IMG/VR virus record: IMGVR_UViG_3300030330_006019
Location: 41,256 to 105,255 of that record
Reading direction: 5' to 3' (one strand)
DNA length: 64,000 nucleotides
Source: a virus
Taxonomy: Duplodnaviria; Caudoviricetes
Under the pieces are notes generated by a model. It was not told the DNA's origin. It was given only the letters and a program-made list of their open reading frames with translations, and did no database searches. A program made the position numbers and the translations under genes. Within the stretch, counting starts at the first letter, position 1, and each line of letters opens with the position of its first letter. Positions 1,144-44,868 of this stretch are shown piece after piece.

Positions 1144-1291
1144 TTTTCTCCTGTATTTCTTTAAGTTCTGCTATTAACTTTTTTAGTTCACGCTTATGTC
1201 CTTCTAGTGTCCAACCATCTAATCTGTTTGCATGAACAATTTCAAGTTTAAGAAATTCTATTCTTTCTTGTATTTTATTAATTCTTGACAT
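1121..1291 (-). CDS. small coiled-coil hypothetical protein (56 aa)
   Basis: Manual [59 protein letters not shown]; it fills the gap and overlaps both neighbours. Confidence 0.6.
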   Translation of the reverse strand: MSRINKIQERIEFLKLEIVHANRLDGWTLEGHKRELKKLIAELKEIQEKIDDKDNR

Positions 1292-3655: not shown

Positions 3656-3690
3656 AATATAATATAACTAATTTTATTGACAATAAAAAA

Positions 3691-4611: not shown

Positions 4612-4621
4612 AATATTTCCT

Positions 4622-8248: not shown

Positions 8249-9045
8249 AACTTCACTCTTTTTATTGATTTGTGGGCAGAACTCTTATCAGAAACTATTT
8301 CTAACTCAATTCCTTTAGAGTTTAACCATTCCTTTAAGAATTTTGTTGAATCTATAACAACTTGCATTTCACGGTATGTCATTCCACATTTTGCTTCAGT
8401 TATTTCACCATATTTATTTTCTTCAGTTGAATAACAATGGTCATGAAATATAACTTCATTTGGGTCATCACCAGAGTATGGGCTTAAATCCCCAATATCC
8501 CAACCAACTACAACAATTTTTTTAACACCTAAGTATACGGCTAAATGAAAAATTATTTCATACATCATTCCTGGACCAAATTGTCTATATATTGTTTTAT
8601 CCAATGTCCAATCATCAAAACTCAATTTTCCAGCTTGTGATTCATCCATTCTTTCTGGGTTAGGTATGTGATTACCAACAACAGGTAACATTAAATGACA
8701 TGGCCATTTATTTTCCAATATTAAATTTGGATGGAATTGTTCAAATACTTCCCATATATTTATAGTTTCATCACTTTCATAAGTATATGGCTGATAGTTT
8801 ATAATATTAAGAATATGAAAATCTGCAACCTTTCCTAAACTATTATATGCTTGTTTATTAGCAATTACTAACTTATCACTTAATTTTTCCTTTAGTTCAT
8901 CTACAGGAATATCATTTAATGATGGACCACATGTTACTATATATGCAGTTTCATCTTTATAATAATCTCGCATTTCACGAAGTCTAAGTGGTATAAGTTC
9001 GTGTTTACCAATATTCTTTTTTAATTGTTTAGTTTTAGAGTGCAT
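8245..9045 (-). CDS. DUF115/MAF-like protein (putative CMP-ulosonate transferase)
   Basis: AYIVTCGPSLN...VIANK...LAVYLGVKKIVVVGWD. Confidence 0.7.
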   Translation of the reverse strand: MHSKTKQLKKNIGKHELIPLRLREMRDYYKDETAYIVTCGPSLNDIPVDELKEKLSDKLVIANKQAYNSLGKVADFHILNIINYQPYTYESDETINIWEVFEQFHPNLILENKWPCHLMLPVVGNHIPNPERMDESQAGKLSFDDWTLDKTIYRQFGPGMMYEIIFHLAVYLGVKKIVVVGWDIGDLSPYSGDDPNEVIFHDHCYSTEENKYGEITEAKCGMTYREMQVVIDSTKFLKEWLNSKGIELEIVSDKSSAHKSIKRVKL

Positions 9046-10003
9046 CTACTTCTCCAAGAGTTTGTTCCCAATTCTTAAATGTTATACCTTTGTCATCAAT
9101 GTATGCAACTGCTCTAGGTTTTTCTGATGTTACCTTTGTGACAAATTTTGCCATATCATTATCTCTTAACCAATCCCATACTAACTGAATACCAGTTTTT
9201 CCGTTTATTAAACCTCTATCTGGTTTTGCCTTTGCAGTATAAATTATTACATCATACTTTTTTGACAATTTTTCAAGAGCTTCATATGAACCTTCAATTG
9301 GTTCGTCATAAACAGTTCCATCATAAAATCCTTTACTGTTTTTATGAATTACTCCATCAAAGTCTACACCTATATTTCTTGTTTCATCTGGAAAACTATG
9401 CTTTCTAATTTTATCACCTTGCCAATTTAATTTATCAAGTTCTTGTGGTGTATTTTTACCAATAGGCGGGCATTCTTTTCCAGAACCATGTGTAAGTTGA
9501 TATTGTAATAATAGGCTTAAACATTCTGCCGTATGGTAATACTCTACGCCTAATACTACTTGCGTAAGTCCTTTAATTTGTCCAGCTATAGGATTAGCTG
9601 TTACTAAGCATGTTTGCATTCCATTATCTGATGCCCACTGCAATGCTTTTAATACATCAATAGATTTACCAGAAGAAGAGATTCCATAAACTAATGATTT
9701 TTTCATTTGTGATTTTGTTCTTGTTGAAGTTCTTTGCTTTAACCAAGCAACCATCCATAAATCAAAACTTGTATCATTTATTAATGATGTTGCAACTACA
9801 CAACTCCCAGGGCACATTGCATTTTTTGTACCATTAGAAAGTCTTGTCATATCAACTGCCGTATGGTCTGCTATTCCCATATTGCCACCATGTCCTAATA
9901 CATAAATGTCATCACATTCATTATACTTTACTTGTAAATCATTCCATTCAGGTGTACTTATAACCTCTGTAAATCTATGTCCTATGTTTTCGATATTCAT
10001 CAT
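9035..10003 (-). CDS. SIS (GmhA-like sugar-phosphate isomerase)-HAD phosphatase fusion
   Basis: N-terminal LGHGGN...ADH, ND, GISSSGKS; C-terminal DFDG, YTAK, KP...YIDDK. Confidence 0.8.
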   Translation of the reverse strand: MMNIENIGHRFTEVISTPEWNDLQVKYNECDDIYVLGHGGNMGIADHTAVDMTRLSNGTKNAMCPGSCVVATSLINDTSFDLWMVAWLKQRTSTRTKSQMKKSLVYGISSSGKSIDVLKALQWASDNGMQTCLVTANPIAGQIKGLTQVVLGVEYYHTAECLSLLLQYQLTHGSGKECPPIGKNTPQELDKLNWQGDKIRKHSFPDETRNIGVDFDGVIHKNSKGFYDGTVYDEPIEGSYEALEKLSKKYDVIIYTAKAKPDRGLINGKTGIQLVWDWLRDNDMAKFVTKVTSEKPRAVAYIDDKGITFKNWEQTLGEVDAL

Positions 10004-10063
10004 AACTCTATTTCCTTTAATTTTATTTAATATAACAATTTTTCTTGAATAATAAAAATTTTA

Positions 10064-10948: not shown

Positions 10949-10950
10949 TT

Positions 10951-11592: not shown

Positions 11593-11603
11593 AAAAACTT
11601 TCC

Positions 11604-12230: not shown

Positions 12231-12233
12231 AAC

Positions 12234-12764: not shown

Positions 12765-13219
12765 TACTTGGCTACACCCATTCTTTTACATGCGTCCATA
12801 AATTTATCACGTGGAAATCTTTCGGATAATTCTATTCCAAGTCTTGTTTTATAATACTCACCATCTCTTCCAGGAATTGGGTATTTTATTTGCTCACCTT
12901 TTTCAATCTGAACAACTGGTGAATATACCCATTCATAAGAATCTTTGGTTCCTTCTGGATATAGCATTGCATGCTCCATAACAATTGTTGTTAAATACCA
13001 GTATTGTCCTAAAAGCTTGTCTTCAAATCGTGTTGACGTAATTATTTTAGGTGAACGAGATTCAAACTCTTCTACTTGTTTATTTCCAATTGTTAAATTA
13101 CTATTTGTATTATACCCAGTGTCCATACACATTTTAGATATACCAGCTTTTTCATCTTTTTCAACTATAACTGATACTCTATTTGTAAAAGGACTTTTTT
13201 CTTTTAAGTCTGTACTCAT
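12764..13219 (-). CDS. hypothetical phage protein
   Basis: 151 aa ORF with overlapping stop/start codons. Confidence 0.75.
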   Translation of the reverse strand: MSTDLKEKSPFTNRVSVIVEKDEKAGISKMCMDTGYNTNSNLTIGNKQVEEFESRSPKIITSTRFEDKLLGQYWYLTTIVMEHAMLYPEGTKDSYEWVYSPVVQIEKGEQIKYPIPGRDGEYYKTRLGIELSERFPRDKFMDACKRMGVAK

Positions 13220-14490: not shown

Positions 14491-14499
14491 TTTTTTCTC

Positions 14500-15957
14500 C
14501 TAAAAATTATGTCCTACTGGGTATTTTGGTTTTGGTTTTTGTGAGTCAATTAAAGTAAATCTTTTTCTAGGTTTCCAATGTTTCCAACAACTTTCAATTG
14601 AACGTTCAAATGCATTACACATTTCCTTTGCTGTAAATCCATTTTCAATTGCCCAGTCTCTTCCTTTCATACCTCTGGTTTTTAATTCATCTACTCCTAA
14701 TCTATATGCTTTTTCAATTTGGTCTGTAACATCAGGTATATTACATCTTGAATCATAAATGTATGGTGTAAGAGGTGAACCTTGTAAATTTATTTGTGGC
14801 CAAACAACAAATGACCATTCACCATGATTCTTATACCTACCATTACTATTACTTGGCCAATCAGAATTATAATCTTCCAACTCTACATATTTTCCATCAT
14901 CTTTAATAATACCTACTTGGTCTTGTAAACCTCCAATACAATTTACTAAAACTGGTGTACCTGTCATAATTGATTCCATGCAACTTAAACCAAATCCTTC
15001 AGCAGAACTAATATTTGCACCTAAATCTGACATATTATACAAGTAGTTTAATTGTTTTGTTGTTAACTTAGCTTCACTAAATATCACATTATAATCTGGT
15101 AATAGTGCATCTTTTACAGCACCTAAATCAGTACCTGCATCATCTACTTTATTTGTGTGTAATAACAAGTAACATTCATTTGCTTGTTCTTTTGTTAATC
15201 TATCACAAAATAGTTTATACGCTAACATTAAGTCAGATGTAGATTTTCTTCTAATATTTCTACTGTTATACATTACAACAAATCCTGGCGTAACACCTCC
15301 AAATATCTGATGTTCAAATTTAATCAATTCATTAAACTCTGGGTGATCCTTTCCAATTGGATAGTATTCATCTGTTGGTATTCCGTGTTGTACATATGTT
15401 AAGTCTATACCTTTTCTTCTAGGATTCTTTTGGCAAACATTAAAATTAATATTGTATGTTTGCTTTGATATTGCCATAAGTAAATCACATGAATCATAAA
15501 AAGGCTCATTCCAATGCGGATAAGGCAAATCATCCCAGATATTCAAATATCCTAATGGTATAGTTTGTCTTATTTCATGTTCCATTTGATAAAGCCACTG
15601 CCAGAACCTAGGGTCTGTAAAGTGAATAATTGCATCTGGTTTTTCTTGTGAAATTATATGTCTAACAATTTCTTGAGTACCATAACCTGAACATGGATAT
15701 ATTTTTACATCTGCATCATCTACTCCAGTTTCAGTTTTTACTTGGTCACTTATATCTAAAAGTTTTCCATTGTCTGGATGTTTTACTGCTCCTCCTAGTT
15801 GTACCCAGTCATATCTATCAACTGTTCCAAAAACTAAATTCTTTGATACAGTTCCTACACCTGAATGCAATCTCATATCATCTGAAAGCAATAATATTTT
15901 TTTCTTTTTTGGCTTATTTGGGTCTACACTTCTTAATTTTGGTAATTTGATTTCCAT
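14500..15957 (-). CDS. GT-B (GT4-like) glycosyltransferase
   Basis: SGVG, HGI, NSRNIRRK, SAEGFGLSCMES. Confidence 0.88.
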   Translation of the reverse strand: MEIKLPKLRSVDPNKPKKKKILLLSDDMRLHSGVGTVSKNLVFGTVDRYDWVQLGGAVKHPDNGKLLDISDQVKTETGVDDADVKIYPCSGYGTQEIVRHIISQEKPDAIIHFTDPRFWQWLYQMEHEIRQTIPLGYLNIWDDLPYPHWNEPFYDSCDLLMAISKQTYNINFNVCQKNPRRKGIDLTYVQHGIPTDEYYPIGKDHPEFNELIKFEHQIFGGVTPGFVVMYNSRNIRRKSTSDLMLAYKLFCDRLTKEQANECYLLLHTNKVDDAGTDLGAVKDALLPDYNVIFSEAKLTTKQLNYLYNMSDLGANISSAEGFGLSCMESIMTGTPVLVNCIGGLQDQVGIIKDDGKYVELEDYNSDWPSNSNGRYKNHGEWSFVVWPQINLQGSPLTPYIYDSRCNIPDVTDQIEKAYRLGVDELKTRGMKGRDWAIENGFTAKEMCNAFERSIESCWKHWKPRKRFTLIDSQKPKPKYPVGHNF

Positions 15958-15975
15958 AACCTCTTCCTTAATAAT

Positions 15976-16167
15976 CTATAAATTTTTGCCTAATAGTGTT
16001 GTTTCTAAAATCTTCTGTCTAAAATTTTTGTCTGTTAAATATAAATGAATTGCCCTATTTGTGATTTTTTGAAAATTAAGGTTATCTTGTATTCCTTTAA
16101 TCTTAAAATCCCTGTGCAACTCTTTAGAAATTTTGACAGATGTTAATTTAAGTTTGTCCTGTGTCAT
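15976..16167 (-). CDS. small ribbon-helix-helix-like DNA-binding protein
   Basis: KLTSVKISKELHRDFK...FQKITNRAIHLY pattern; AGGAG Shine-Dalgarno upstream. Confidence 0.6.
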   Translation of the reverse strand: MTQDKLKLTSVKISKELHRDFKIKGIQDNLNFQKITNRAIHLYLTDKNFRQKILETTLLGKNL

Positions 16168-16225
16168 CTTATTATCTCCTTTATATATGAATATACATAT
16201 ATAAATATAATCATAAAATTAAAAA

Positions 16226-16627
16226 CTAATGAATAATGACAACTTTTTTGCGAAATTTTCTTGCTTCAAAAATTGTATATTCAGTTCCTTTACTTTCTTC
16301 ACCCTTTGGAATAAATGCTATTAAGTAATCAACATATCTTGCCAAAATAGTATTTCTTGTAAAATAATTTTTTGTTTTATATGGTTTATTGTACCAATTT
16401 TCTGACATAATTGAATACAATGTTTTTTGTGTATGAGCTGGGTTTACTTCCCTATATTCACAACCTAACTCTAATGCATATTTTTTAACATACTTGTCGG
16501 CACCATGCTGTCCTCCTCCACTAACAACAATTAACCTATCACCAAATCTTTTTGTTAAGTCAAATACTGTTTGCTTAATCTTTCTTTTATTTTCATATGT
16601 ATTACTACCGACAATTCCTATTTTCAT
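16226..16627 (-). CDS. SLOG/YspA (DprA-like Rossmann) family protein
   Basis: IGIVGS, VSGG..GAD, RN, IAF, SKGT motifs. Confidence 0.75.
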   Translation of the reverse strand: MKIGIVGSNTYENKRKIKQTVFDLTKRFGDRLIVVSGGGQHGADKYVKKYALELGCEYREVNPAHTQKTLYSIMSENWYNKPYKTKNYFTRNTILARYVDYLIAFIPKGEESKGTEYTIFEARKFRKKVVIIH

Positions 16628-16848
16628 TACTTTCTATTCCTATTTGGTCTATAACTATACCAAGCTCTTTCATGAAAATAATACAATACCATTTTTGTAA
16701 TTAATTCTAGTGCACCTACCTTTAACCCAATCATAGGGTCTCCACTAACAAGCCAACCTAATGCCATTGTATCTAATGTACCAACAACTCTCCATGTTAT
16801 GGTTTTAATAATATGTCTACGCCTTGCAGCCCATTTATTTCTTGTCAC
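16627..16848 (-). CDS. DUF2061 small membrane protein
   Basis: KTITWRVVGTLDT...KMVLYYFHERAW. Confidence 0.85.
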   Translation of the reverse strand: MTRNKWAARRRHIIKTITWRVVGTLDTMALGWLVSGDPMIGLKVGALELITKMVLYYFHERAWYSYRPNRNRK

Positions 16849-17198
16849 TTTAGCAACCCCTCTTTTCTCATTTGTTTTCTAATTTTAGTTGCTGATATCT
16901 TTTCAACTTGTGTTGGAGGTACATGTTCGATAATTTCATATCCAACACCTCTGCCATAATTAACAGATTCTATGTCTGGTATAATTACTACCTTTATACT
17001 TCCATTTGCAATTTCTTTTGAAAATCTTTTATTTAAGTTTTGCTCAACTTCTTGTGGTGTCCAAGGTTGATTTTCATTTGGTTCAACATCCCTAATTGCT
17101 ATACATATATTTTTGCCTTCTTTAATTCTTTGGTCTATTAACCATTGATGGCCATCATGCCAAGGTTGCCACCTTCCTATAAACATTGAGTATTTCAT
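16845..17198 (-). CDS. HxGH nucleotidyltransferase (cytidyltransferase-like)
   Basis: FIGRWQPWHDGH and ISATKIR motifs. Confidence 0.85.
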   Translation of the reverse strand: MKYSMFIGRWQPWHDGHQWLIDQRIKEGKNICIAIRDVEPNENQPWTPQEVEQNLNKRFSKEIANGSIKVVIIPDIESVNYGRGVGYEIIEHVPPTQVEKISATKIRKQMRKEGLLK

Positions 17199-17953
17199 AT
17201 TCCTTTATCTCTTTGTAAATTTAATGCTATTGCCCTTTCACCAGGCTTATCAGGATCCATATCATTAATAAGATATCTTGGACCTCGCTCAATCCCCATT
17301 ATTAATCTATCAAATGGTATGTAATTATTTACCAATTCATTGATAGTATGTTCTCTCATATCTTCAGGTCTTGCTGTTGTTAAAATTATCATATGACCAT
17401 CATCATACCACTCATTTAATTTATCAACAGTTGAAATTATAGGTTCTGCATCTGAAGTTGTATATGTTTCAAATTTTCTATACTTAAAAATTGTTCCATC
17501 AATGTCACAAAAATATGTATGCTTCTTTTTTACATTAAATGATATTTTGTCTAAACACTTTTCAATAGAAATATTTGTTGTGTCCATGTCAATAAAATTT
17601 TCTGTAGGCTTTTCATAATCTTTTGCAAAATAGTCTTCCCTACCTCTAGTTTCAGTTGTATGAACATATATTTCAGTTACATCATTTGTTGCCTTTAGTG
17701 AATCTCTCATTTCCTTATATGGAGCAACAACTGAAACAACAACTGTCAATCCTTTATTATCTAAGAATCTACATAAATCCAATACTGACTGTATATTCTT
17801 TGTTCTCCCAGCTGGGCTATAGTCGAAATTTTGAAATAAATCTCGCAAACCATCACCATCAATATGAATGCAATTATCACTACATTTTTCTATCATTGCT
17901 TTAGCTAATGTTGTCTTACCAGCACCTGGCTGGCCTGTAAACCAATATATCAT
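17195..17953 (-). CDS. cysC: adenylylsulfate kinase fused to a HAD phosphatase domain
   Basis: WFTGQPGAGKTT, DGDGLR, DYS..GR, VAPY, YEKP; C-terminal FCDIDGT...TTAR...LIND. Confidence 0.88.
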   Translation of the reverse strand: MIYWFTGQPGAGKTTLAKAMIEKCSDNCIHIDGDGLRDLFQNFDYSPAGRTKNIQSVLDLCRFLDNKGLTVVVSVVAPYKEMRDSLKATNDVTEIYVHTTETRGREDYFAKDYEKPTENFIDMDTTNISIEKCLDKISFNVKKKHTYFCDIDGTIFKYRKFETYTTSDAEPIISTVDKLNEWYDDGHMIILTTARPEDMREHTINELVNNYIPFDRLIMGIERGPRYLINDMDPDKPGERAIALNLQRDKGI

Positions 17954-19114: not shown

Positions 19115-19361
19115 GTTTAATTGTTCCTTTGCTATCTTTCTTATCTGCTTGTTGAGGAATAAGCTCGTCATTAACATGGCCACAGCTACTACACTCAAAT
19201 ACAGGCATTGGTAAAAAACTTTTCTTTCCACTTGGCGACATTACAGCTGAAACACGTTTTAATAATACTACTTGAATAAATGTAGGATTTCCACATTCTT
19301 CACAAACAACATCATCCATGTCGTTTAGATTTATATTTATCTTTTGTTTATTATCTTTCAT
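19107..19361 (-). CDS. zinc-ribbon hypothetical protein
   Basis: CEECG...CSSCGH. Confidence 0.75.
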   Translation of the reverse strand: MKDNKQKININLNDMDDVVCEECGNPTFIQVVLLKRVSAVMSPSGKKSFLPMPVFECSSCGHVNDELIPQQADKKDSKGTIKLG

Positions 19362-21010
19362 TATCCTATTCCAAATCCTCCTCCCATCATTGGTGGCTCT
19401 TTGCCTTCTTCCTCTGGGAGTTTATTAATTACACATTCAGTTGTTAAAATTGTACCTGAAACTGATACTGCTTTTTCAAGAGCAACACGTGTTACTTTAT
19501 TAGGGTCAACAATTCCTTCTTCATACATATCTACAACTTTTTCATTTCTTGCATCAAATCCTGGTACTTTCAAACCATCTGATGTATTAACTTTATTCCA
19601 TATTACATCAGAATTTAGACCTGCATTTTCCATTATTGCATTAAATGGTGCCTTGCATGCATCTAAAACAATTTCATATCCAATTAGTTGGTCAGGATTT
19701 GAAACAAATGGACCTTCTTCTTCAGCCTCTGTGCTTGCAATTCTTAGTGCTATTCCACCACCAGGTACAATACCTTCATCAATTGCTGCTCGTGTTGCTG
19801 CAAGTGCATCTTCAACTCTATATTTTTTTTCCTTAAGCTCTATTTCAGATTGTGCACCTATATTTAATATTGCAACACCGCCTGTCATTTTACCAAGCCT
19901 TTCTTGAAGACTTTCTATTTCATAACTAGAGTCTGAACTATCAATTAAGTCTTTTATATCATTTGCCCTGGCTAAAACATCATCAGAATTTCCACCACCA
20001 TCAACAATTGTTGTATTTTTACCAGTTATACTAATTAACTTTGCTGTACCAAACATATCAGGTGTAACTTTGTCAAGTTTCATTCCCTTTGTTGTTGAAA
20101 TTACAGTACCTCCAGTCAAAACAGCAATGTCTTGTAACATATCATTTCTTTTATCACCAAATCCTGGTGCCTTTACAGCTGCTACTTTACACGTACCTCT
20201 TGCTTTATTAACAATAAGTCCTGCCAATGCTTCACCATCAACATCTTCGGCAATAATAACTAAAGGCTTATCTGCTTGGATTGCCATTTCAAGTGGCTTA
20301 ACTATTGATTTTAGACTAGATATTCGTTTATCATATAGTAGAATCCATGCATTTTCCAATTGGCACATCATCTTTTCATTTGAATTTACAAAGTATGGAG
20401 ATAAGTAACCTCTATCAAACTGTAAACCTTCAACAACTTCTAAATTTGTTTCTGATGACTTTCCTTCCTCAACTGTTATTACACCTTCACGACCTACTTT
20501 GTCCATAGCTTCAGAAATAAGGTTTCCAATTTCAGTATCATTATTTGCAGATATTCTTGCAACTTGTTGAATTTCAGTTTCAGATTCTATTTGTTTACTC
20601 ATAGAACTTAATTTTTCTCTAATAACACCAACAGCCTTTTCCATACCTCTTTTTATTTCAACAGGGTTTGCTGAACTTCTTGAAATTGTATTCAACCCAT
20701 TCTCAATAATACTGTGAGCCAATACTGTAGCCGTTGTTGTTCCATCACCAGCTTCATCATTTACTTGCTTGGCAACTTCTTTAACCATTTGTGCACCAGC
20801 ATTTTGAACTGAATCTGTTAGTTCTACTTCTTCAGCAACTGTTACACCATCCTTTGTTGAAACATATTCACCAAAATCTTTTTCAATGACAACATTTCTA
20901 CCTTTAGGACCTAATGTAGTTTTTACTGCATCACATAATGTATTTATTCCAGCATACAATCCATCTTTTGCTTTTTTGTCAAATGATATTTTTTTTGGAC
21001 CTGATTTCAT
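19361..21010 (-). CDS. groEL: chaperonin GroEL
   Basis: [40 protein letters not shown]-like tail. Confidence 0.98.
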
Positions 21011-21011
21011 T

Positions 21012-21308
21012 TTATTTCTCCTTAATAATAACTAATAATTCTTTTTCACGAATGACCAAATAGTCTTCTCCGTCAACTTCAATCTTTTTTGCACCATACT
21101 TTGGGTACATAACTTTATCACCTACTTTGCACTGCATATAACCAACTTGGCCAGAAGATAATACTTCGCCTGGACCAACTGAACATACTGTACCTAACAT
21201 AGTTTCTTCTTGTGCAATATCTGGAAGGATAACTCCTCCTGATGTCATTTCATCTGGGTCAATTGCTTTTAATACGACTCTATCGCCTATTGGATTTAAT
21301 TTTTCCAT
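21012..21308 (-). CDS. groES: co-chaperonin GroES
   Basis: PIGDRVV...TSGGVILPD...VGPG...KVGDKV; start MEKLNP follows GGAGG. Confidence 0.96.
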   Translation of the reverse strand: MEKLNPIGDRVVLKAIDPDEMTSGGVILPDIAQEETMLGTVCSVGPGEVLSSGQVGYMQCKVGDKVMYPKYGAKKIEVDGEDYLVIREKELLVIIKEK

Positions 21309-21367
21309 TATAACCTCCATTTATTATGTATATATTAATAACCTTTTTGTATATATAAATATACTTC

Positions 21368-24570: not shown

Positions 24571-24664
24571 AGTATTATCAATTATTTATATATAAATATA
24601 ACTAGAATTGTTGGGAAAAAAAAATATTTTCACAGTTATTTTTACTAAAATATGAAAAAAGTTA

Positions 24665-24892
24665 TTAACAAGGATTGTTTACATAGTATTCTATGAGATT
24701 TATTATCTTTTCTGCATCAGAATCATCACATTGTTTATAACTTTTTCCCATTTTACTTTTAATTCTTTCAAAAATATGTGCATATGAATTTCTTCCTTTT
24801 GGGTGGAAGCGGTGAGGAGGTAATTTACCTTTTAGTTCATCACCTGCCTTTATAGCTGCTTCATATATTATCTTTTGAACCTCTGGTGACAT
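24665..24892 (-). CDS. hypothetical protein
   Basis: 75 aa ORF at the end of the modification operon. Confidence 0.7.
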   Translation of the reverse strand: MSPEVQKIIYEAAIKAGDELKGKLPPHRFHPKGRNSYAHIFERIKSKMGKSYKQCDDSDAEKIINLIEYYVNNPC

Positions 24893-24893
24893 A

Positions 24894-26117
24894 TTAAAAT
24901 AACGATGTCTGTAATGATTCTTGAATAATCTTTTGATTTGTATTGTCTTGTTTTACAAAGAAACCATCAGCAGTTGGTAATTCACCATTTATATATTTTA
25001 CAACTTGTTCAGTCATATCTCTTGCAGTACATGTAGGTACATTTTGTGCAATATGATTTACTTGCTTTACGTCTTCAATTACAAAGTCATGTGGTAGTCC
25101 CATTAGGTGTAAAAATTCTCTAACATTCAAATACCTATTTTCTGTTGGATGTACACCATTAAACATGTTCCTACCAATTAGTGCATTAAACGATTTACTA
25201 AAAATATGAGGTGAACTATCCCAATATCCTAGTCCCATTGACCTCTTTTTTAATACATGTTCTAACATACTAATAAATGTATTTGTTCCATTCTTTTTAC
25301 TAAACCCTTCAGTTGGATAATATTTTTTTAACCAATCAATACATTCATGTACAAGGTCATATTTTTCAAGGTATTGATATAATGTTCCATGATTCCACCA
25401 TTCAACAAATTCTTTATGAGTTTTACCTTCTCGTTCAAGAATAAATTGGTATGGCTTAAAGTGTTCAGTTACAGAACCTGGTACCATAAACATATCTTGA
25501 CAACTTGCATTTTTTGGTACCTCTAATAAATAATCTGCTAGTGATTTACAATCTCTCTTATACCAATCAAATATAGGAGGCTTAGTACCTTTCCAAAAAA
25601 AGTAAAATGTTCTCATTCTTCTTTGTGGTATACCATGTAACTCTGTATTTGTCTTAATCATTGAAAAACTATAATCATATTCTTTTCCAATTGTCTTTAG
25701 TTTTTCTACAACACCTTCACCAAGTTTAGTAAATAGTCCAGGTGCATTTTCTCCCCATAAAACTTTTGGCTTATAGTTTTCTAAAATTACCCTTGTAGAT
25801 TTATACATCCATTCATTTTGTGCTGCATCACTACCTCTCTTATTTATACTTCCTTCAATAGCAGATGAATTCAACATTGACAATCCTGCACAAGGACATA
25901 CACTATTTACAAAATCAAGCTTACCTAAATCAGGAGTATTTCCTTCATCCAAAACATGATAAGGTACATCTGGCCAATGTCTTCTAATGTGACTTTCATT
26001 GGATGCAAATGGACTATATGTTAAATGTCCTACTGGTTGATTTTTTGTTGTCATACTGCAACCTACTGCACTACCACCAATAAGTGGTATTATTGTTGCC
26101 CATTTTATTTCGCTCAT
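24894..26117 (-). CDS. atypical C5-cytosine DNA methyltransferase
   Basis: motif IV CPCAGLS, VI ENAP, VIII PQRRMRTF, IX RYLNVRE...MGLP; motif I is IPLIGG and motif X is IAQNVP. Confidence 0.85.
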   Translation of the reverse strand: MSEIKWATIIPLIGGSAVGCSMTTKNQPVGHLTYSPFASNESHIRRHWPDVPYHVLDEGNTPDLGKLDFVNSVCPCAGLSMLNSSAIEGSINKRGSDAAQNEWMYKSTRVILENYKPKVLWGENAPGLFTKLGEGVVEKLKTIGKEYDYSFSMIKTNTELHGIPQRRMRTFYFFWKGTKPPIFDWYKRDCKSLADYLLEVPKNASCQDMFMVPGSVTEHFKPYQFILEREGKTHKEFVEWWNHGTLYQYLEKYDLVHECIDWLKKYYPTEGFSKKNGTNTFISMLEHVLKKRSMGLGYWDSSPHIFSKSFNALIGRNMFNGVHPTENRYLNVREFLHLMGLPHDFVIEDVKQVNHIAQNVPTCTARDMTEQVVKYINGELPTADGFFVKQDNTNQKIIQESLQTSLF

Positions 26118-27385
26118 ATTCTAACTCCTATATTTGTGTTTGCTAACGATGTATTTACAATGTCATATACAAATGAACCATCTGTAACATTTTTAATTAA
26201 ATTTTGTTGTAATAGATTAACCAATTGTATTCTCTTTTCAGGAACTTCATCTAAAAATTTCATTTTGTCATAAAAATCTTGAGGACTTGAAACCCTACAG
26301 AAATGATTAAGAGGTAAAACATTTCCTTGAGTGTCGTATGTTGGATGGAAAAAAGGTACAACACCCATCATAAGTACTTCAGCATATTTACTTGTTACCC
26401 AGTCAGGTCCTATTGGAATTACAAGAGTATATCGTGTATCCTTAAACTTTTCATCTATTTCAGCTGGTGTAACATATCCCTTAAATTGTGGGTAACCATC
26501 TGTAAAGTGTTCTTTCCATTTACCATATATTTCAACTTCTTGGTCTGTATCACGGTCAAGAATCCATTCTTTTATTGCATCAAATCTTTTATCCTTTGTT
26601 GCTTGACCTGTTACACTCTGCATTGCTACAATTGTAAACTTTGTATTTCTAGTTATACTAGGTTTTATAATTTTTTCATCTACAAGATTAAGCTTTTCAA
26701 TTCCACTATATCTTACATTAATTGTTTTGTCCTCAAATTCAGCATCATTTCTGTATTCCTTTAAGCTATGCCAAATACTTGTTGTATTATACTGTGCAAT
26801 TATTTCTTTTGGATAATTTACAGTATCTTTTGCCTTAAATATTGGTTTAGTATATCTAGGGTCTGTACATATCATATACCAAGGAAGGTCTGATTTATTT
26901 AGATAGTGAACAATTGGTGAAGAATAATTATATGTCATACCTAGAAGTTTTACCTTTGAACTAGGGTCTCTTACACCATCTAAGAAATTAGGTATAACAT
27001 TGTTTGTCATATATCCTGGTCCAATAAATCCTAAACCAAAATCTGGTTTTGTTTCATCATGATTTAGATATTCATCAAGTCTTTGGTAATTTAGAGTCAA
27101 TTGCATATCCTGGCCCTTATCTGGTCTTATATCTTTTGGGTCAAGTTCATCATAGATATATCTTAAAACTCCACGTGGGTCATATTCTTGCTTTTCAAAC
27201 ATATCAAGTTTTCCCCAATCACTCTTTTGTATAATAAGTACCTCCCCAATTTTTGGATTAGAACATAGTGATTTTATAAGTTTATAATACTCATTAGTAC
27301 CATCGGCACGTTTAAGATTCTTTTTTACAAATTTAATTGCACCACCTAATACAAAGATAGCGACTTTAATGTTGTCAGTTTTCAT
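26114..27385 (-). CDS. T4 beta-glucosyltransferase-like DNA glycosyltransferase
   Basis: Colinear similarity to T4 BGT as recalled from memory: KVAIFVLG, ICTDPR, YSGIEK, EIYGKW, PQFKG, WVTSKYAE, YDTQ. Confidence 0.75.
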   Translation of the reverse strand: MKTDNIKVAIFVLGGAIKFVKKNLKRADGTNEYYKLIKSLCSNPKIGEVLIIQKSDWGKLDMFEKQEYDPRGVLRYIYDELDPKDIRPDKGQDMQLTLNYQRLDEYLNHDETKPDFGLGFIGPGYMTNNVIPNFLDGVRDPSSKVKLLGMTYNYSSPIVHYLNKSDLPWYMICTDPRYTKPIFKAKDTVNYPKEIIAQYNTTSIWHSLKEYRNDAEFEDKTINVRYSGIEKLNLVDEKIIKPSITRNTKFTIVAMQSVTGQATKDKRFDAIKEWILDRDTDQEVEIYGKWKEHFTDGYPQFKGYVTPAEIDEKFKDTRYTLVIPIGPDWVTSKYAEVLMMGVVPFFHPTYDTQGNVLPLNHFCRVSSPQDFYDKMKFLDEVPEKRIQLVNLLQQNLIKNVTDGSFVYDIVNTSLANTNIGVRI

Positions 27386-28958
27386 ATGTAAATTCCTCAT
27401 ATATTAAATTCATGGCTCTTAACCAAAATGCTTTACATCTTTCTGGGTTATCTTGGTGAAAAGGTATACAAGTTAAAAATAACATTATTGCAAGTCTCTT
27501 AACATTTCCTATATCATAACCATACTCGTTCATTTTAATTAACATATTAACCAATATCTTGTTTTGCTTTTCCTCATCCCAATGAAGTATTACCTTTGAA
27601 CCTTCAATGTGATATCTTCCAGAAACTATCATCATGTATCCACAATACCAATCATGTAAAAGTTTACCCATATCATACTGTGCGTCACCAGAAAACTTTG
27701 ACATTCCAAAATATCCCCTAGGGTCTAGTAACTTAATTCTACCATTGTGACTATTAAATAACATATTTCCTAAATGTAAATCACCATGAATTCTTTCACT
27801 CCACTTTGATGTCTGTAATAACTTTAGGCCTGATTGTTTTATAAATTTCTTTGCAGTGTCTATACCTATAAAGTCATTATACATTTCACTATCCAGCCTG
27901 TCCATGTTTTTTTGAATATACATTTCATAGCAGTCTGAAAGTTTTTCCTTTCCTAGTTTATAAAACACTTTGTGATATATATCAAGTATTGAATTTGTAA
28001 CACCTATCCATGTATCAGCATTCATTCTTTCATATAGCCAAACTTCATTTAGTGGAGTACCGGCTTCCCATGACATTTTCATTTCGCCATGTTGTGAATC
28101 CAAAATTTGTGGTACAAATAATCGCTGAGTATCATTTAATGTATTAAACCAATTCTTTTCTTTCTCTATCTTAAGTGCTTTATCACCAGTTGCCTTTTTG
28201 GTAATTGTACCTAAAAATGTATCTATCTCAAGTGTATTAAACTCTCTAGATGAACCTTGCATTAGACGGGCTGTTGATTCATAATATGTTTTTAATTCAC
28301 CACAATCATACCATTCCGTAGTATCTAATAATTCAAAATTAGGTATGTAATTAAGATATTCTGATAGTAATGCTGCTATTTGGTGTTCACCTTTATGTTG
28401 AGGTTGATTCATTCCTTTCTTAATAGAATCATTAAACCATTTTCTATTGTTAAAATAATATAGACCTATAAGTGCAGAATCTGTAGGTACATCATTATCA
28501 GGTTTGTCATAAAATGTTTTACCATTACTATCAACTAAGCACCATCTAGATTTTTGTTCAACCTTTGATACTCCTAAAAATCCTGGACTATTAAAGTTTA
28601 ATTCGTCACGGCAAATTGTATCACCTAACCAAATCAATACAGAATTGTCTTTTTTTGTTGATTTTTTCCATCCAACCTCAATTGCATGTAGTGGCCCTTT
28701 TGGATTTTTTTGTTCAACAAACTTAAATGTATTTTCAATAAATGAATATGTAGATTTAACAAATTCACTAATATCATGTAATTTATTTTCAACAATGATT
28801 ATTTCATTTACATTATGATATTGTAATAATTCATCTAAGATATATGAAATAATAGGTTTACCACAAACAGGTATCATTGCCTTTGACATGTTACTTGAAA
28901 GTGGCCTCATTCTTGTTGCCAAACCGGCTGCTGGTATTATTACTGATATATTAGTCAT
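27375..28958 (-). CDS. sugar-1-phosphate nucleotidyltransferase fused to an APH/choline-kinase-like sugar kinase
   Basis: IIPAAGLATRMRP...SKAM, WLGD, DKP, WYDCG; C-terminal IHGDLHLGN, LLDPRG, YDMGKL. Confidence 0.88.
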   Translation of the reverse strand: MTNISVIIPAAGLATRMRPLSSNMSKAMIPVCGKPIISYILDELLQYHNVNEIIIVENKLHDISEFVKSTYSFIENTFKFVEQKNPKGPLHAIEVGWKKSTKKDNSVLIWLGDTICRDELNFNSPGFLGVSKVEQKSRWCLVDSNGKTFYDKPDNDVPTDSALIGLYYFNNRKWFNDSIKKGMNQPQHKGEHQIAALLSEYLNYIPNFELLDTTEWYDCGELKTYYESTARLMQGSSREFNTLEIDTFLGTITKKATGDKALKIEKEKNWFNTLNDTQRLFVPQILDSQHGEMKMSWEAGTPLNEVWLYERMNADTWIGVTNSILDIYHKVFYKLGKEKLSDCYEMYIQKNMDRLDSEMYNDFIGIDTAKKFIKQSGLKLLQTSKWSERIHGDLHLGNMLFNSHNGRIKLLDPRGYFGMSKFSGDAQYDMGKLLHDWYCGYMMIVSGRYHIEGSKVILHWDEEKQNKILVNMLIKMNEYGYDIGNVKRLAIMLFLTCIPFHQDNPERCKAFWLRAMNLIYEEFTYEN

Positions 28959-29175
28959 CTGTTGTCATCCATACTTCTCTACTATCAGGGTCACTACCTA
29001 TAACAACTTCTTCGCAATCTGACTTACAGACTGCAACAACTGTTCCAAAATCACTACCTGATATAAACTTTGCTGTATAATATTCTCCAAAGTCATTTAT
29101 TACTTCAAATACATCACCAACTTTATATTTGGAATACTGATATTTATCGTTTGTACTATTTGTTCTTATTATCAT
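28951..29175 (-). CDS. hypothetical protein
   Basis: 74 aa ORF in the operon; beta-rich (YKVGDVFEV). Confidence 0.65.
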   Translation of the reverse strand: MIIRTNSTNDKYQYSKYKVGDVFEVINDFGEYYTAKFISGSDFGTVVAVCKSDCEEVVIGSDPDSREVWMTTDD

Positions 29176-29188
29176 AACTATTATTCAA

Positions 29189-29566
29189 TTAGTATGGAAG
29201 GTCTAAATTTATGTTACCTATTCCTTCAGTATCTCGTTTAAGATTTATTGCAAAGGCAGTTGCCTCCCTTCCATTTTTTTTCATATCATTTATTAAGTAT
29301 CTTGGGCCACCACCAAATCCCATTATCAATTGGTCATAAACTATTCCAGCCTCAGCAAGTTGACGCTCTGTTTGGTTTTTCATACACAATCTTCTACCAG
29401 TTGTTAAAATTATATTGTAGCCTTTTCTTTCCCACTCCAATAATTTTTCAATCGTTCCTGGCAATACCTCCATTTTATTATATGGAGATGTTGCTTCTGA
29501 TGGTGACATGTGCTTTACTAGCGTACCATCTATATCACAAAATATTGTTTTAGGTCTATTATCCAT
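29189..29566 (-). CDS. capless HAD-family phosphatase
   Basis: FCDIDGT, TTGR, LIND. Confidence 0.85.
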   Translation of the reverse strand: MDNRPKTIFCDIDGTLVKHMSPSEATSPYNKMEVLPGTIEKLLEWERKGYNIILTTGRRLCMKNQTERQLAEAGIVYDQLIMGFGGGPRYLINDMKKNGREATAFAINLKRDTEGIGNINLDLPY

Positions 29567-30003
29567 TATTGTATCCCAGTACTACCAAATCCACCTGTTC
29601 CTCTGGTTGAATCAGAGTTATACAAGTTAGATTCGTCTACTTCTTCTAAATTAGGTGGTCCTAATGGCAATAAAACAAACTGAACTATTTTATCACCTGG
29701 ATTGATATACACAGTATTCTTTCCATAATTAAATAAGTGTATATGTACCTCTCCTTGATAACCACAATCAACAACACAAGCTCCAACTTGCAATTCACGA
29801 ATAGTTGCAATTCCAGATTTATTAAATGCTATTAAAGCATAACCCTCAGGTACATCAACTTTAATACCAGATGGAATTAGACACTTTTCATTTGACCTTA
29901 ATTCGGTTACAACCATATCATTTGGTACAAAAAAGTCAATACCAGCATCTGTTGGATTTGCCCGTGTTGGTGTTTTTACATCTCTTACTTTTGAAAACTT
30001 CAT
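29566..30003 (-). CDS. dut: trimeric dUTPase
   Basis: DAGIDF, NKSG, VVDCGYQGE, GDKIVQ, RGTGGFGSTG. Confidence 0.93.
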   Translation of the reverse strand: MKFSKVRDVKTPTRANPTDAGIDFFVPNDMVVTELRSNEKCLIPSGIKVDVPEGYALIAFNKSGIATIRELQVGACVVDCGYQGEVHIHLFNYGKNTVYINPGDKIVQFVLLPLGPPNLEEVDESNLYNSDSTRGTGGFGSTGIQ

Positions 30004-30185
30004 TTTACAATCTCCTCTTTTTCTCTTGCCTTTATATCGCATTCAGCCAACACATCACCAATCACTTTTTTACTTGATGGAGAAAGTTCGCCATACTCCA
30101 ATTTACTCAATGCGTTTTGTAAAGCAACCTTAACCCAAGCTTTTTTATAAGTTGGATTCCATTTACGTACTAATTTTTTAGCCAT
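30000..30185 (-). CDS. hypothetical protein
   Basis: 61 aa coupled ORF. Confidence 0.65.
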   Translation of the reverse strand: MAKKLVRKWNPTYKKAWVKVALQNALSKLEYGELSPSSKKVIGDVLAECDIKAREKEEIVK

Positions 30186-30462
30186 TATCTTTTTCCTTTA
30201 TATAGTTATCTAATCCTCCTAAATATGCAACTGCATCTAATAAATTATCTTCTCTATAATTATATGAGTGTCTAGATAATTTTAGTGCAATTAATGCAGC
30301 ATACATATCTTCTGCTACAAAATCCTTTCCAGTCATGCCACTTGCGATTTTAGCCGCACGTTCCATTCCTTCACTAAAAGGTCCATACTGTCTTTCCTTT
30401 TCTTCAGAGCGATTGTTTATTATACCATCTGCCCTTTTAAGTATTGATTCTTTCTTTTTCAT
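30178..30462 (-). CDS. DUF6378-like all-helical putative nucleotide pyrophosphohydrolase
   Basis: SIL..A..IIN.R...RQYG...LKLSR...DNLLDAVAY. Confidence 0.7.
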   Translation of the reverse strand: MKKKESILKRADGIINNRSEEKERQYGPFSEGMERAAKIASGMTGKDFVAEDMYAALIALKLSRHSYNYREDNLLDAVAYLGGLDNYIKEKDNG

Positions 30463-31328
30463 ATAAATAATTTTTTACTAATATCATTTGCATATTCACC
30501 AATCTGTTCTTTTGTCATATCTTTTTCTGGTAAATACATCTTGTTTTGTTGTATATAATCTAATGTTACATGGTCATTTAACTTATAATACTTTCCATAG
30601 TATTCTGTGTCTTCACTATCAATTGATAAAATATTATGTGCCATTTCATTATGCATTTCATATAGGTGTAAACTTCCTGCATGGTGATAATATGAACCAA
30701 GTTCTAAATCTGGGTATACAGTTTTTAATTCATTATACATTAATTGTTGAAATAAACAAAATATGAAAATATCATTTGACATTCCAAAAATAATATCATT
30801 ACTTCTCATACTTACACCCATATGAAGTTTATTATTTCTTATAAAAAACTGCAAGTATTGTGTACATGGTATATCGTTTGGATTTTTTGTTTTATGATAT
30901 GGTTGTCCTATAACAAATGTTGCACGTCGACTATCTTTATCTTTTGTCAATTCATTTACAGACCAGTTCCATTGATTTCCAAAAACATAACAGCCATAAT
31001 TTGATTCTACATTATCTTCACCATCCTTTATGTTTAACCAAATTCTTGCAAATTTACCAATATTTGTTGCATTAGGATTTCTTGACAAATACCAAAGAAA
31101 TTCTGCTAACGTATATGTTTCATTAAATTTTCTACTTGGCCACCAAATACCTAAATCTGTCGGGTTGTCTATAACAAAACTTCTAAATAAAACTTCTTTT
31201 TGGTTTGTTCCACGACTTTGTACAGTGTTTGTTTGATTTACAATATTTTGTAATTCCCAGTAAAATGCTTCATGTAAATTTGTATATCTACCTGTTTCTA
31301 TTTTTGGTACTGACCAGTATTTTCTCAT
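30459..31328 (-). CDS. thymidylate-synthase-family enzyme, dCMP hydroxymethylase (T4 gp42)-like
   Basis: AEFLWY, SNYG, DSRRA, catalytic PCT, MRSNDIIFGMSND (Asp at the specificity position), GSLHLY. Confidence 0.8.
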   Translation of the reverse strand: MRKYWSVPKIETGRYTNLHEAFYWELQNIVNQTNTVQSRGTNQKEVLFRSFVIDNPTDLGIWWPSRKFNETYTLAEFLWYLSRNPNATNIGKFARIWLNIKDGEDNVESNYGCYVFGNQWNWSVNELTKDKDSRRATFVIGQPYHKTKNPNDIPCTQYLQFFIRNNKLHMGVSMRSNDIIFGMSNDIFIFCLFQQLMYNELKTVYPDLELGSYYHHAGSLHLYEMHNEMAHNILSIDSEDTEYYGKYYKLNDHVTLDYIQQNKMYLPEKDMTKEQIGEYANDISKKLFI

Positions 31329-31358
31329 AATGTGTAACCTGTTTTAATTTATTTAATC

Positions 31359-31392
31359 TAATATAACAAAAATTATTGGGATAAAAAAATAT
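31359..31392 (-). promoter_or_regulatory. class A promoter motif (TTTTT-W..TC/CCAA..GTTATATTA) heading the DNA-modification operon
   Basis: The same motif recurs at about 3661, 10029, 18886, 23814, 24144, 24595, 38053, 40536, 40948 and 44837, always just upstream of a gene. Confidence 0.75.
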
Positions 31393-32229: not shown

Positions 32230-32424
32230 CTAATCTATGATTTTAACTGTAAAGGATTTTAGGCCTTTATATTTCATATCACTCATTGCATTACATAATA
32301 CGTACTGTACATTTCTTTCAATTGTATTATGTCCATCATTGTCCACTATGACCTCTTTCATAGCAGGGCCTGAATTTAATTTAACAGGTTGAGAAAATTT
32401 TATCTTTACACTTTTCATAAGCAA
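32230..32424 (-). CDS. hypothetical protein
   Basis: 64 aa coupled ORF. Confidence 0.6.
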   Translation of the reverse strand: MLMKSVKIKFSQPVKLNSGPAMKEVIVDNDGHNTIERNVQYVLCNAMSDMKYKGLKSFTVKIID

Positions 32425-33311
32425 CTAAAATACCTTTCACCTCTATCACAAAGGATTGTTATTGCATGTTTACAATCATTGTCTCTTAACCATTCAAATG
32501 CTGCCTTAACATTTGCACCTGCACTTATTCCTACAAACAGTCCAAACCTATGTGCTAAATGGCGTGCTACTTTTCTTGCACAATTTGTATGTACTGTTTT
32601 TATTTCAGTAATTTTTTGCAAATCAACTAGAAATTTACTACCATCTCCAATACCTTGTATTCCATGAAGTCCTGCTTCACCACCTGACATTACTGCTGAC
32701 TCTTCTGGTTCAACTGCTACTAAATTCATTCCTGGATAATGTTCTCTAAGATATTTTCCACAACCCATTATTGTTCCGCCTGTACCTGTTCCTGCTACAA
32801 ATGCTTGTGGCCAACCTATATTTTGATCAAGTTGTTGTCTAATTTGTTTTTCTATTTCTGGTCCAGTATTTTTATAGTGTGCTTCAATGTTCAAGGGGTT
32901 ATGAAATTGATTACAATTGAACCAACCCATCTTTTCACACATTTCATCTCTTACCCGTATTGCATTGTCAAAGTCACCTTCCTTAACTTCTATCAAATGA
33001 GCACCATAAAACTTCATCATTCGTTTTCTTTCTTCAGACATATTTGAAGGCATAATGATTGTCATTTGATAACCTCTCTCTGCTGCTAACATAGCAAAAG
33101 CAATTCCTGTATTTCCAGAAGTTGCTTCACAAAGTACATCACCTTTTCTTATTAGATTATTATTTTCTGCATGGTTCAGTATATGAGTTGCCATTCTGTC
33201 TTTAACAGAACCGCCAGGATTCATAAATTCACATTTACCCCAAACTGTATAACCACCCATTGTAATTGGTATCAATGGTGTATTTCCTACATAACTACTT
33301 AACATTTTCAT
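32415..33311 (-). CDS. cysK: cysteine synthase (PLP-dependent O-acetylserine sulfhydrylase)
   Basis: VGNTPL, NPGGSVKDR, EATSGNTG, GTGTGGT, IQGIG, GISAGAN, DRGERY. Confidence 0.93.
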   Translation of the reverse strand: MKMLSSYVGNTPLIPITMGGYTVWGKCEFMNPGGSVKDRMATHILNHAENNNLIRKGDVLCEATSGNTGIAFAMLAAERGYQMTIIMPSNMSEERKRMMKFYGAHLIEVKEGDFDNAIRVRDEMCEKMGWFNCNQFHNPLNIEAHYKNTGPEIEKQIRQQLDQNIGWPQAFVAGTGTGGTIMGCGKYLREHYPGMNLVAVEPEESAVMSGGEAGLHGIQGIGDGSKFLVDLQKITEIKTVHTNCARKVARHLAHRFGLFVGISAGANVKAAFEWLRDNDCKHAITILCDRGERYFSCL

Positions 33312-38028: not shown

Positions 38029-38092
38029 ATGCTATTATCTTTTATTTATTATAATATAACTAAAATATTTGGGATAAAAAAATATTTTTGGT

Positions 38093-44827: not shown

Positions 44828-44868
44828 ATTTGTTTTAATATAACCAAAAATATTGACAAATAAAAATA

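Follow-up and report, generated by a model that had tools for sequence, protein, structure and literature searches.

A run of ten genes in a 64,000-nucleotide stretch of viral DNA (positions 41,256 to 105,255 of IMG/VR record IMGVR_UViG_3300030330_006019; hereafter the window) probably encodes a pre-replicative pathway of cytosine hypermodification, in which cytosine would be replaced by 5-hydroxymethylcytosine (5hmC) and a sugar activated by the phage itself would be attached by a glycosyltransferase (GT) of the type of T4 beta-glucosyltransferase (BGT). The source of the window is a 105-kb viral contig with a CheckV completeness of 42%; the phage is a jumbo phage, and its host probably belongs to the phylum Bacteroidota. 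The core of this pathway, namely 5hmC from a hydroxymethylase-type thymidylate synthase (TS) homolog, a self-activated pentose or heptose and a BGT-type transfer, had been put forward in a sequence-only reading of the window, and it is supported by the active-site signature of the TS homolog, the homology of a sugar-activating enzyme to AfhE, the structural kinship of the GT with BGT and conserved synteny. The principal genes, in the order of the run, are as follows.

30459..31328, minus strand: TS-fold enzyme of the dCMP hydroxymethylase type, a predicted 5-hydroxymethyl-dCMP (5hm-dCMP) synthase (Thymidylat_synt PF00303, 1.3e-14)
29189..29566, minus strand: small HAD phosphatase, positional counterpart of AfhF and predicted sugar-bisphosphate phosphatase (HAD families; DxD motif DIDGT)
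27375..28958, minus strand: AfhE-like bifunctional enzyme, with an N-terminal nucleoside diphosphate sugar (NDP-sugar) pyrophosphorylase and a C-terminal APH-type sugar kinase (Pfam NTP_transferase 3e-21, APH 6.5e-4)
26114..27400, minus strand: BGT-like GT-B protein, a predicted DNA 5hmC glycosyltransferase (weak Glyco_trans_1_2; PHROG 'beta-glucosyltransferase'; AlphaFold2 model)
24894..26117, minus strand: divergent C5-cytosine methyltransferase (MTase)-like protein, translationally coupled to the GT (DNA_methylase PF00145, 3e-14)

The hydroxymethylase-type enzyme and the glycosyltransferase

The best matches of the TS homolog in the Protein Data Bank (PDB) are the CMP hydroxymethylase MilA (5e-21) and the dCMP hydroxymethylase of T4, gp42 (2.5e-18), whereas true thymidylate synthases are matched at 2e-8 (ThyA) or worse. 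The matches to both hydroxymethylases are at least ten orders of magnitude better than that to ThyA. PDB chain 9iqc (238 amino acids, aa), which is taken to be the 5-hydroxy-dCMP synthase of phage HY126 because its length equals that of the HY126 gene, is matched at only 1e-4. The segment MRSNDIIFGMSND aligns residue for residue with MRSNDVVFGFRND of T4 gp42. When ThyA, T4 gp42 and the HY126 enzyme are aligned with the window protein, the latter has D, C, D and D at E. coli ThyA positions 143, 146, 169 and 177, identical to T4, whereas HY126 differs in having N at 169; the catalytic C155 and the phosphate-binding R134/R135 and R175/S176 are invariant across the alignment.

Three of these positions bear on the chemistry of the enzyme. 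According to Lee et al. 2026 (PMC13326640), Asp at ThyA 177 confers specificity for dCMP, an acidic residue at ThyA 143 correlates with water access and a hydroxymethyl product, and Asn at ThyA 169 is the mark of the flavin-dependent 5-hydroxy-dCMP synthases of RB69 (gp48), DLP3 (gp80) and HY126. In the window protein the cytosine-specificity Asp (N177 in ThyA) is present as the D of GMSND and aligns with T4 D179, as the sequence-only reading had recognized; the acidic residue (L143 in ThyA) is the Asp of NDIPC; and the 5-hydroxy signature D169N is absent, with RSND in the window protein against RSQN in HY126. Because the signature residues match those of T4, unlike those of HY126, we infer that the TS homolog is a folate-dependent 5hm-dCMP synthase. 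The same signature, 143 D, 169 D and 177 D, is found in all 20 TS homologs encoded beside this GT family (15 from IMG/VR loci, four from other fetched loci and the window's own), with D169N in none.

The kinship of the GT with BGT is one of structure. An AlphaFold2 model computed with 31 homologs (pLDDT 90.8, pTM 0.89) retrieves T4 BGT entries as its top six Foldseek matches (4e-10 to 7e-9), above all other GT-B enzymes, and pairwise comparison with VIA-align gives the following order.

T4 BGT: Z 21.6 (313 aligned residues, 16% identity, root-mean-square deviation 4.3; model residues 11-427 against BGT 1-351)
Best unrelated GT4 enzyme: Z 19.2
T4 alpha-glucosyltransferase (AGT): Z 18.2
HY126 arabinosyltransferase: Z 16.7

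The sequence-only reading had also held that the GT matches T4 BGT along its length. This is the case for the whole chain in the predicted structure; by sequence it is not, no significant similarity to CAZy family GT63 being found: phmmer returned no BGT or PDB match at E<=10, BLASTP gave an E of 0.1 and hhalign a probability of 0.9% (E 0.059), and the sole sequence link is a match of the C-terminal domain to phrog_7922 (5e-4). Within the segment ICTDPR, residues D180 and R182 do not vary across the GT family and come after a beta-strand, like the catalytic D100 of T4 BGT in LFTDIR, and it is plausible from this placement that D180 (TDPR) is equivalent to D100 (TDIR). The hhalign alignment, which is non-significant, pairs the UDP-binding residues R195/R269/E272 of BGT with R272/K338/E341 of the GT.

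Homologs of the GT number 264, in metagenomes. Its pattern of structural neighbours, BGT and then BshA and MshA, is the same as that of the PDB neighbours of GT53, GT66 and GT94 in the survey of Pyle et al. (10.1101/2023.12.21.572611), where all three were reported to place sugars on 5hmC, heptose in the case of GT53 and Kdo in that of GT94. One homolog of 681 aa (P0006) is fused to a choline/APH-type kinase domain (PF01633), an architecture that supports a putative functional link between kinase and GT.

Predicted sugar activation and conservation of the module

The 527-aa fusion enzyme is colinear over its full length with AfhE of HY126 (BLASTP, residues 6-523, 22% identity, E 8e-18), has the kinase motifs HGD..N and DPRGYFG in common with it, and has homologs in 430 phage records. 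In work summarised in PMC13326640, arabinose 5-phosphate is first phosphorylated at C1 by AfhE, then loses its 5-phosphate to the HAD protein AfhF, and is finally turned into UDP-arabinose, again by AfhE. The HAD gene of the window lies two genes upstream of the fusion; the nearest relatives of its product are the 3'-phosphatase domains of polynucleotide kinases. It is 17-29% identical to the AfhF-type HADs of HY126, of the related locus L006 and of the cultured phages XG4 and 9183, whose insert of about 12 aa it lacks, and with HY126 AfhF itself (17% identity) it has only the HAD core in common. BLASTP against the presumed HY126 AfhF gene, a 128-aa open reading frame (ORF) after AfhE, gave no match, and an orthology of the HAD to AfhF is thus not supported.

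Heptose and pentose are the most likely sugars, with heptose somewhat ahead. A SIS search for an arabinose-5-phosphate isomerase, which was positive for HY126, found none in the 105-kb fragment, 42% complete as it is, and none in XG4 or 9183, whose genomes are complete. A possible source of precursor lies elsewhere in the window, within a separate glycan cluster.

9035..10003, minus strand: two-domain protein, GmhA-like (phosphoheptose isomerase) at the N-terminus and HAD at the C-terminus, a possible precursor supply

Phosphoheptose isomerases make up nine of the 13 PDB sequences that this protein matches at E<=1, including the three best (best 3.3e-4, residues 36-160); SIS is matched at 0.024, and the HAD-type phrog_1238 at 6.6e-13 over residues 207-316. 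Heptose 7-phosphate made by this protein might be passed to the operon's kinase; alternatively, the protein might work for the glycan cluster in which it resides.

Two further genes of the run have recognizable families.

29566..30042, minus strand: trimeric dUTPase (PF00692 5e-22, phrog_135 1e-39, TIGR00576 5e-28)
30178..30462, minus strand: DUF6378 helical protein (PF19905, E 2e-9)

With an alternative start at 30003, the overlap of the dUTPase gene with the adjacent 61-aa ORF is gone; a dUTPase between TS homolog and HAD is also found in Enterococcus phage 9183. The DUF6378 gene also adjoins the TS homolog in the close relative L015, and its product is predicted to form a helical bundle (pLDDT 90). 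Foldseek with this structure returned nothing at E<=0.001, VIA-align returned MazG/PRA-PH-like chains at Z 4.6-5.5, which is noise for helical bundles, and literature and Atlas searches on DUF6378 made no addition. A role as a MazG-like dCTPase was rejected, there being no significant structural match, and nucleotide pyrophosphatase is a weak lead.

How far these genes travel together can be judged from 28 IMG/VR loci of the GT family, which were fetched and scanned with profiles built from this analysis. A C5-MTase-like gene follows the GT on the same strand in all 28, and in 14 loci the two genes, measured on stop-to-stop frames, lie 7 nucleotides (nt) or less apart and mostly overlap. The TS homolog is near the GT in 15 loci; among the other 13 there are contigs that are short or truncated, but also loci flanked by the full 10 kb on either side. 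The AfhE-like fusion occurs in 11; the HAD profile matches in 17, although some of these matches are to longer HAD-domain proteins, not to a small HAD beside the fusion. Because some members have an epimerase/dehydratase in place of the fusion, or further GTs added, the gene content suggests that the sugars may differ among members of the module. One complete, T4-like member (G012) carries a dNMP kinase of the T4 gp1 type (E 4e-23).

Two cultured phages possess the module. In Pseudoalteromonas phage vB_Psh_XG4 (PP712099) the order is TS, HAD, fusion, GT, an extra gene and the MTase-like gene; in Enterococcus phage 9183 (MT939241) it is Tmk, TS, dUTPase, HAD, fusion and GT. Phage 9183 has no MTase-like gene, and the GT can therefore exist without one. 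Compared with the window, the GTs of XG4 and 9183 are 26-29% identical and the MTase-like protein is 35% identical. Literature searches on 9183 found no report of its DNA chemistry.

The MTase-like protein belongs to the module and, to judge from its profile matches (M.HaeIII 3e-10, M.HhaI 3e-7), can be counted as a true representative of the C5-MTase fold. Motifs IV (VCPCAGLS), VI (WGENAP), VIII (PQRRMR; PQxRxR) and IX are kept across the partner family, whereas in most members motif I reads PLIGG instead of FxGxG and motif X QNVP instead of GNxVP; in a divergent branch of the family a motif scan found no GENxP. In profile alignments that included M.HhaI, M.HaeIII and E. coli Dcm, only motifs IV-X align, and the N-terminal 56-65 residues, which hold motifs I-III of the S-adenosylmethionine (SAM) pocket, could not be aligned to any solved C5-MTase or to Dcm. 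A Protein Atlas search returned only 'viral C5-MTase family'. The wider family comprises 3191 homologs, long forms among them: P0159 and P0198, which are 46-51% identical to the phage protein, stand for forms of 600-700 aa found in a eukaryotic transcriptome and for one form that carries a zf-CXXC domain. Such members hint that the family includes true DNA methyltransferases, and ordinary methyltransferase activity of the phage protein is therefore still conceivable.

A different role was also considered, because the covalent-catalysis motifs (PC, ENx, QxRxR) are kept, the cofactor region is remodelled and the coupling to the GT is seen in essentially every locus. The protein would then be something other than an ordinary SAM methyltransferase, and would either act as a base-flipping or targeting partner of the GT or carry out additional chemistry at C5 or C6, on cytosine or on (glycosyl-)hydroxymethylcytosine. 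We regard this as unlikely; if either role were true, it would imply a base or a mechanism as yet undescribed. A homolog of the MTase-like protein (30% identity) also occurs in cyanophage S-TIM5 (L012; 4781-5617, 8001-9218), near a TS homolog with Asp177 and Cys143 and without a BGT-like GT; this TS homolog may be a dCMP methylase or perform other C5 chemistry.

The predicted pathway, its rivals and its relatives

The hypermodification pathway that we consider probable would begin with hydroxymethylation of dCMP by the TS-fold enzyme, using methylene-tetrahydrofolate, as the signature residues suggest. Kinases, none of which was identified, would raise 5hm-dCMP to the triphosphate for incorporation by the phage B-family DNA polymerase, while the dUTPase would keep the pool free of dUTP. 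In parallel, the kinase domain of the fusion would phosphorylate C1 of a host- or phage-derived aldose omega-phosphate, the HAD phosphatase would then take off the distal phosphate, and the N-terminal nucleotidyltransferase domain would make the NDP-sugar; these steps are proposed because of the homology to AfhE/AfhF and by analogy to the 'contig 53' system discussed below. Lastly, the BGT-like GT-B protein would flip out 5hmC in DNA and transfer the sugar to its hydroxyl, a step to which structure and synteny point.

The location of the operon, adjoining genes for DNA polymerase, ribonucleotide reductase and helicase, supports this pathway, while several observations weigh against it. The relation of GT to BGT is structural only, with a score that exceeds those of generic GT4 enzymes by about 2 Z units, and the likeness of the HAD to AfhF is at the level of the superfamily only. 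A C5-methyltransferase would have no obvious substrate if cytosine were fully replaced, and a very large separate glycan cluster in the phage leaves room for a sugar acceptor other than DNA. Homologs of dCTPase and hm-dCMP kinase (T4 gp56 and gp1), Tmk and MazG were not found in the 105-kb fragment, nor was a Tmk or gp1 homolog found in an 80%-complete near relative (G001). Because the record is 42% complete, empty enzyme searches in it are not evidence of absence; on present evidence, the description of the operon as self-contained in the sequence-only reading is overstated, since dCTPase, hm-dCMP kinase and sugar-phosphate isomerase were not identified within it.

The glycan cluster raises the question of whether the sugar is meant for DNA at all. 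HAD, fusion and GT might decorate a virion protein, the host envelope or a small molecule, leaving the TS homolog alone to alter the DNA, to plain 5hmC. The structurally close GT-B enzymes BshA and PimA (Z 18-19) use small molecules and lipids, the phage is heavily engaged in glycan synthesis elsewhere (NeuB, a CMP-transferase, a sulfotransferase and six more GTs), and 65% of the GT hits of Pyle et al. (10.1101/2023.12.21.572611) lie away from base-modification genes. The GT family nevertheless adjoins a hydroxymethylase-type TS and a C5-MTase-like gene in the replication modules of unrelated phages, the best structural match of the GT is a DNA enzyme, T4 BGT, and the separate tandem GT pair of the window (13216-15957) is found in phages without this module, so that a non-DNA acceptor appears quite unlikely. 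We think it slightly less probable still that 5hmC arises after replication, the C5-MTase writing site-specific 5-methylcytosine (5mC), an unrecognised oxygenase converting it to 5hmC for the GT to glycosylate, and the TS homolog serving some other purpose. This would account for the invariance of the GT-MTase pair, which all 28 loci possess and in which the stop codon of one gene often overlaps the start codon of the next, and for the clustering of BGT-like GT-B genes with C5-MTase and 5mYOX genes in the data of Pyle et al. (10.1101/2023.12.21.572611). In the same data, however, GT-B genes cluster with ThyS in 28% of cases and with 5mYOX in 10%; a hydroxymethylase-type TS is near the GT in 15 of the 28 loci, phage 9183 has TS, fusion and GT without the MTase-like gene, and neither this record nor any of 15 related ones, of which four are complete or nearly so, gave a match to Tet_JBP (PF12851) in a search made without a positive control.

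The remaining rivals concern the product of the TS homolog. An AfhE-like fusion and a small HAD beside a TS homolog are also the arrangement of RB69, DLP3 and HY126, where the TS homolog makes 5-hydroxy-dCMP with flavin and arabinose is ether-linked directly to C5. This 5-hydroxycytosine route was rejected for the window, as Asp169 is kept both in its own protein and in all 20 TS homologs beside the GT family; the match to 9iqc (1e-4) is also far weaker than that to T4 gp42 (2.5e-18), the GT is nearer to T4 BGT (Z 21.6) than to the HY126 GT (Z 16.7), and no arabinose-5-phosphate isomerase was found by the search that found that of HY126, all of which makes the route highly improbable. Equally hard to credit, and if anything harder, is a dCMP methyltransferase of the XP12 type, which would make 5-methyl-dCMP and so yield DNA with 5mC and no hydroxyl for a sugar. 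Asp177 gives specificity for dCMP and alone leaves methyl and hydroxymethyl products undecided (PMC13326640); Asp143, however, is as in T4 gp42 and MilA and is correlated with a hydroxymethyl product (PMC13326640), and the conserved BGT-like GT requires a hydroxyl acceptor.

Set beside the glucosyl-5hmC system of the T-even phages, the module has the same TS active-site signature (143 D, 169 D, 177 D), T4 BGT as the nearest solved structure to its GT, and TS and GT genes close together in the replication region. It differs in that the GT is 428 aa long against 351 aa for T4 BGT, with 16% identity and unrecognisable by sequence; in that T4 takes host UDP-glucose whereas the phage's own enzymes would make the donor; and in that no gp1 or gp56 homolog was found in the window's fragment and a C5-MTase-like gene is coupled to the GT. 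Closer in sugar supply is 'contig 53' of Pyle, Lund, O'Toole and Saleh 2023 (bioRxiv 10.1101/2023.12.21.572611). Upon reconstitution in E. coli it decorated 5hmC with one heptose or two, for which three proteins were indispensable, namely a bifunctional HAD/APH enzyme, a cytidylyltransferase and a BGT-like GT-B; the products of contig 53, or subclass III, are 5-heptosyl- and di-heptosyl-methylcytosine. The activities of HAD phosphatase, APH-type kinase and nucleotidyltransferase, together with a BGT-like GT-B and a phage C5-MTase, are common to both systems, but the kinase is fused to the HAD there and to the nucleotidyltransferase in the window, and 5hmC was supplied by MT14 and TET43 in the reconstitutions, as against the TS homolog here.

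With the arabinosyl-5-hydroxycytosine pathway of RB69, DLP3 and HY126 (PMC13326640), the window has in common a fusion homologous to AfhE over its full length, a small HAD gene and a TS-fold first enzyme; it differs in the retention of Asp169, which indicates the folate/hydroxymethyl rather than the flavin/hydroxy type, in the lack of a detected arabinose-5-phosphate isomerase in its fragment, in a GT-B of another lineage and in a HAD for which no orthology to AfhF was found. With XG4 and 9183 the window has in common the order TS, (dUTPase), HAD, fusion and GT, and with XG4 the MTase-like gene as well; these phages have hosts of other phyla, and 9183 is without the MTase-like gene. Taken together, the module appears to resemble T4 in base chemistry, and contig 53 and AfhE/AfhF in sugar supply.

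The sequence-only reading had suggested that the combination may yield an undescribed DNA base; the kind of pathway, however, is not undescribed, as pathways of this kind are already published (heptosyl-5hmC by Pyle et al., 10.1101/2023.12.21.572611; AfhE and AfhF by Lee et al., PMC13326640). Distinctive here is the presence together, in a jumbo phage, of a hydroxymethylase-type TS, an AfhE-type fusion, a BGT-like GT and an MTase-like protein, along with the quantification of the strict GT-MTase coupling and the recognition of cultured phages with the same module. Three known parts, an AfhE-type device for making NDP-sugars, a T4-type hydroxymethylase and a BGT-like transferase, thus come together both in jumbo phages that are uncultured and in phages whose hosts span three bacterial phyla, and XG4 and 9183 are cultured phages in which the chemistry can be read directly. 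Because glycosylated cytosines block restriction enzymes and CRISPR nucleases, and are themselves attacked by type IV restriction enzymes and DNA glycosylases, it is worth knowing what sugars a phage attaches to its DNA and by what means. The most useful puzzle is the MTase-like gene, which follows the GT in every one of the 28 loci and yet has no expected substrate in fully hydroxymethylated DNA.

The gene run and its surroundings

The window has a G+C content of about 31%, and all of its genes are on the minus strand. Around the operon lie genes for a B-family DNA polymerase (just downstream), GroES/GroEL, ribonucleotide reductase, a DnaB-like helicase, UvsX and SSB, and this is therefore the replication region of a large phage. 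Ten minus-strand ORFs are packed tightly between 31381 and 24665, with overlaps of 1-8 nt or small gaps, in the order TS homolog, DUF6378, 61-aa ORF, dUTPase, HAD, 74-aa ORF, nucleotidyltransferase-kinase fusion, GT-B, C5-MTase-like and 75-aa ORF. When the operon was compared as DNA with 50,697 phage records, the sole match was a 198-bp stretch of the dUTPase gene. The remaining ORFs of the run and the copies of a repeated motif are as follows.

30000..30185, minus strand: 61-aa ORF, no family match
28951..29175, minus strand: 74-aa ORF, no family match
24665..24892, minus strand: 75-aa ORF, the last gene of the operon, no family match
31361..31381, minus strand: promoter-like motif heading the operon (TCCCAATAATTTTTGTTATAT), one of four intergenic copies in the window
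24596..24616, minus strand: next copy of the promoter-like motif, at the start of the following transcription unit
38054..38074, minus strand: further copy of the motif
44838..44858, minus strand: further copy of the motif

The locus L006 has no ORF at the position corresponding to the 74-aa ORF. Four copies of the 21-nt motif, TCCCAAYAATTnTnGTTATAT, are present in the window where 0.24 would be expected, each of them on the minus strand and between genes; the motif is probably the promoter of one temporal class of phage genes. As copies of the motif bracket the gene run, the operon boundaries drawn in the sequence-only reading are well founded, and all ten ORFs of its promoter-headed run lie where it had placed them.

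At the other end of the window, positions 1-17953 hold the very large glycan-synthesis cluster, which comprises NeuB (340-1143), three GT2 proteins, a DegT aminotransferase, a 4,6-dehydratase, a CMP-sugar cytidylyltransferase, a short-chain dehydrogenase/reductase (SDR), a cupin, an MptE/Maf-like protein, a sulfotransferase (10951-11592), two GT1 proteins and an APS-kinase/HAD fusion (17195-17953). Its gene content suggests that it makes a sulfated glycan with a nonulosonic acid, for which virion, host surface and DNA are all conceivable acceptors. Flavobacterium phage vB_FspM_immuto and Microcystis phage Mel-JY01, neither of which has a BGT-like GT, carry counterparts (about 45% identity) of the tandem pair of GT1-type genes at 13216-15957; the pair is probably independent of the DNA module, and the glycan cluster at 1-16 kb was rejected as a part of the module on the same ground.

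Two other features of the replication region deserve mention. Between the operon and the ribonucleotide reductase gene, at 32415-33311, lies a gene for a PALP-family PLP-dependent enzyme of the cysteine synthase or serine dehydratase type (E 6e-67), an uncommon gene to find among the replication genes of a phage. The phage also encodes its own GroEL and GroES, at 19361-21320, immediately downstream of its DNA polymerase gene.

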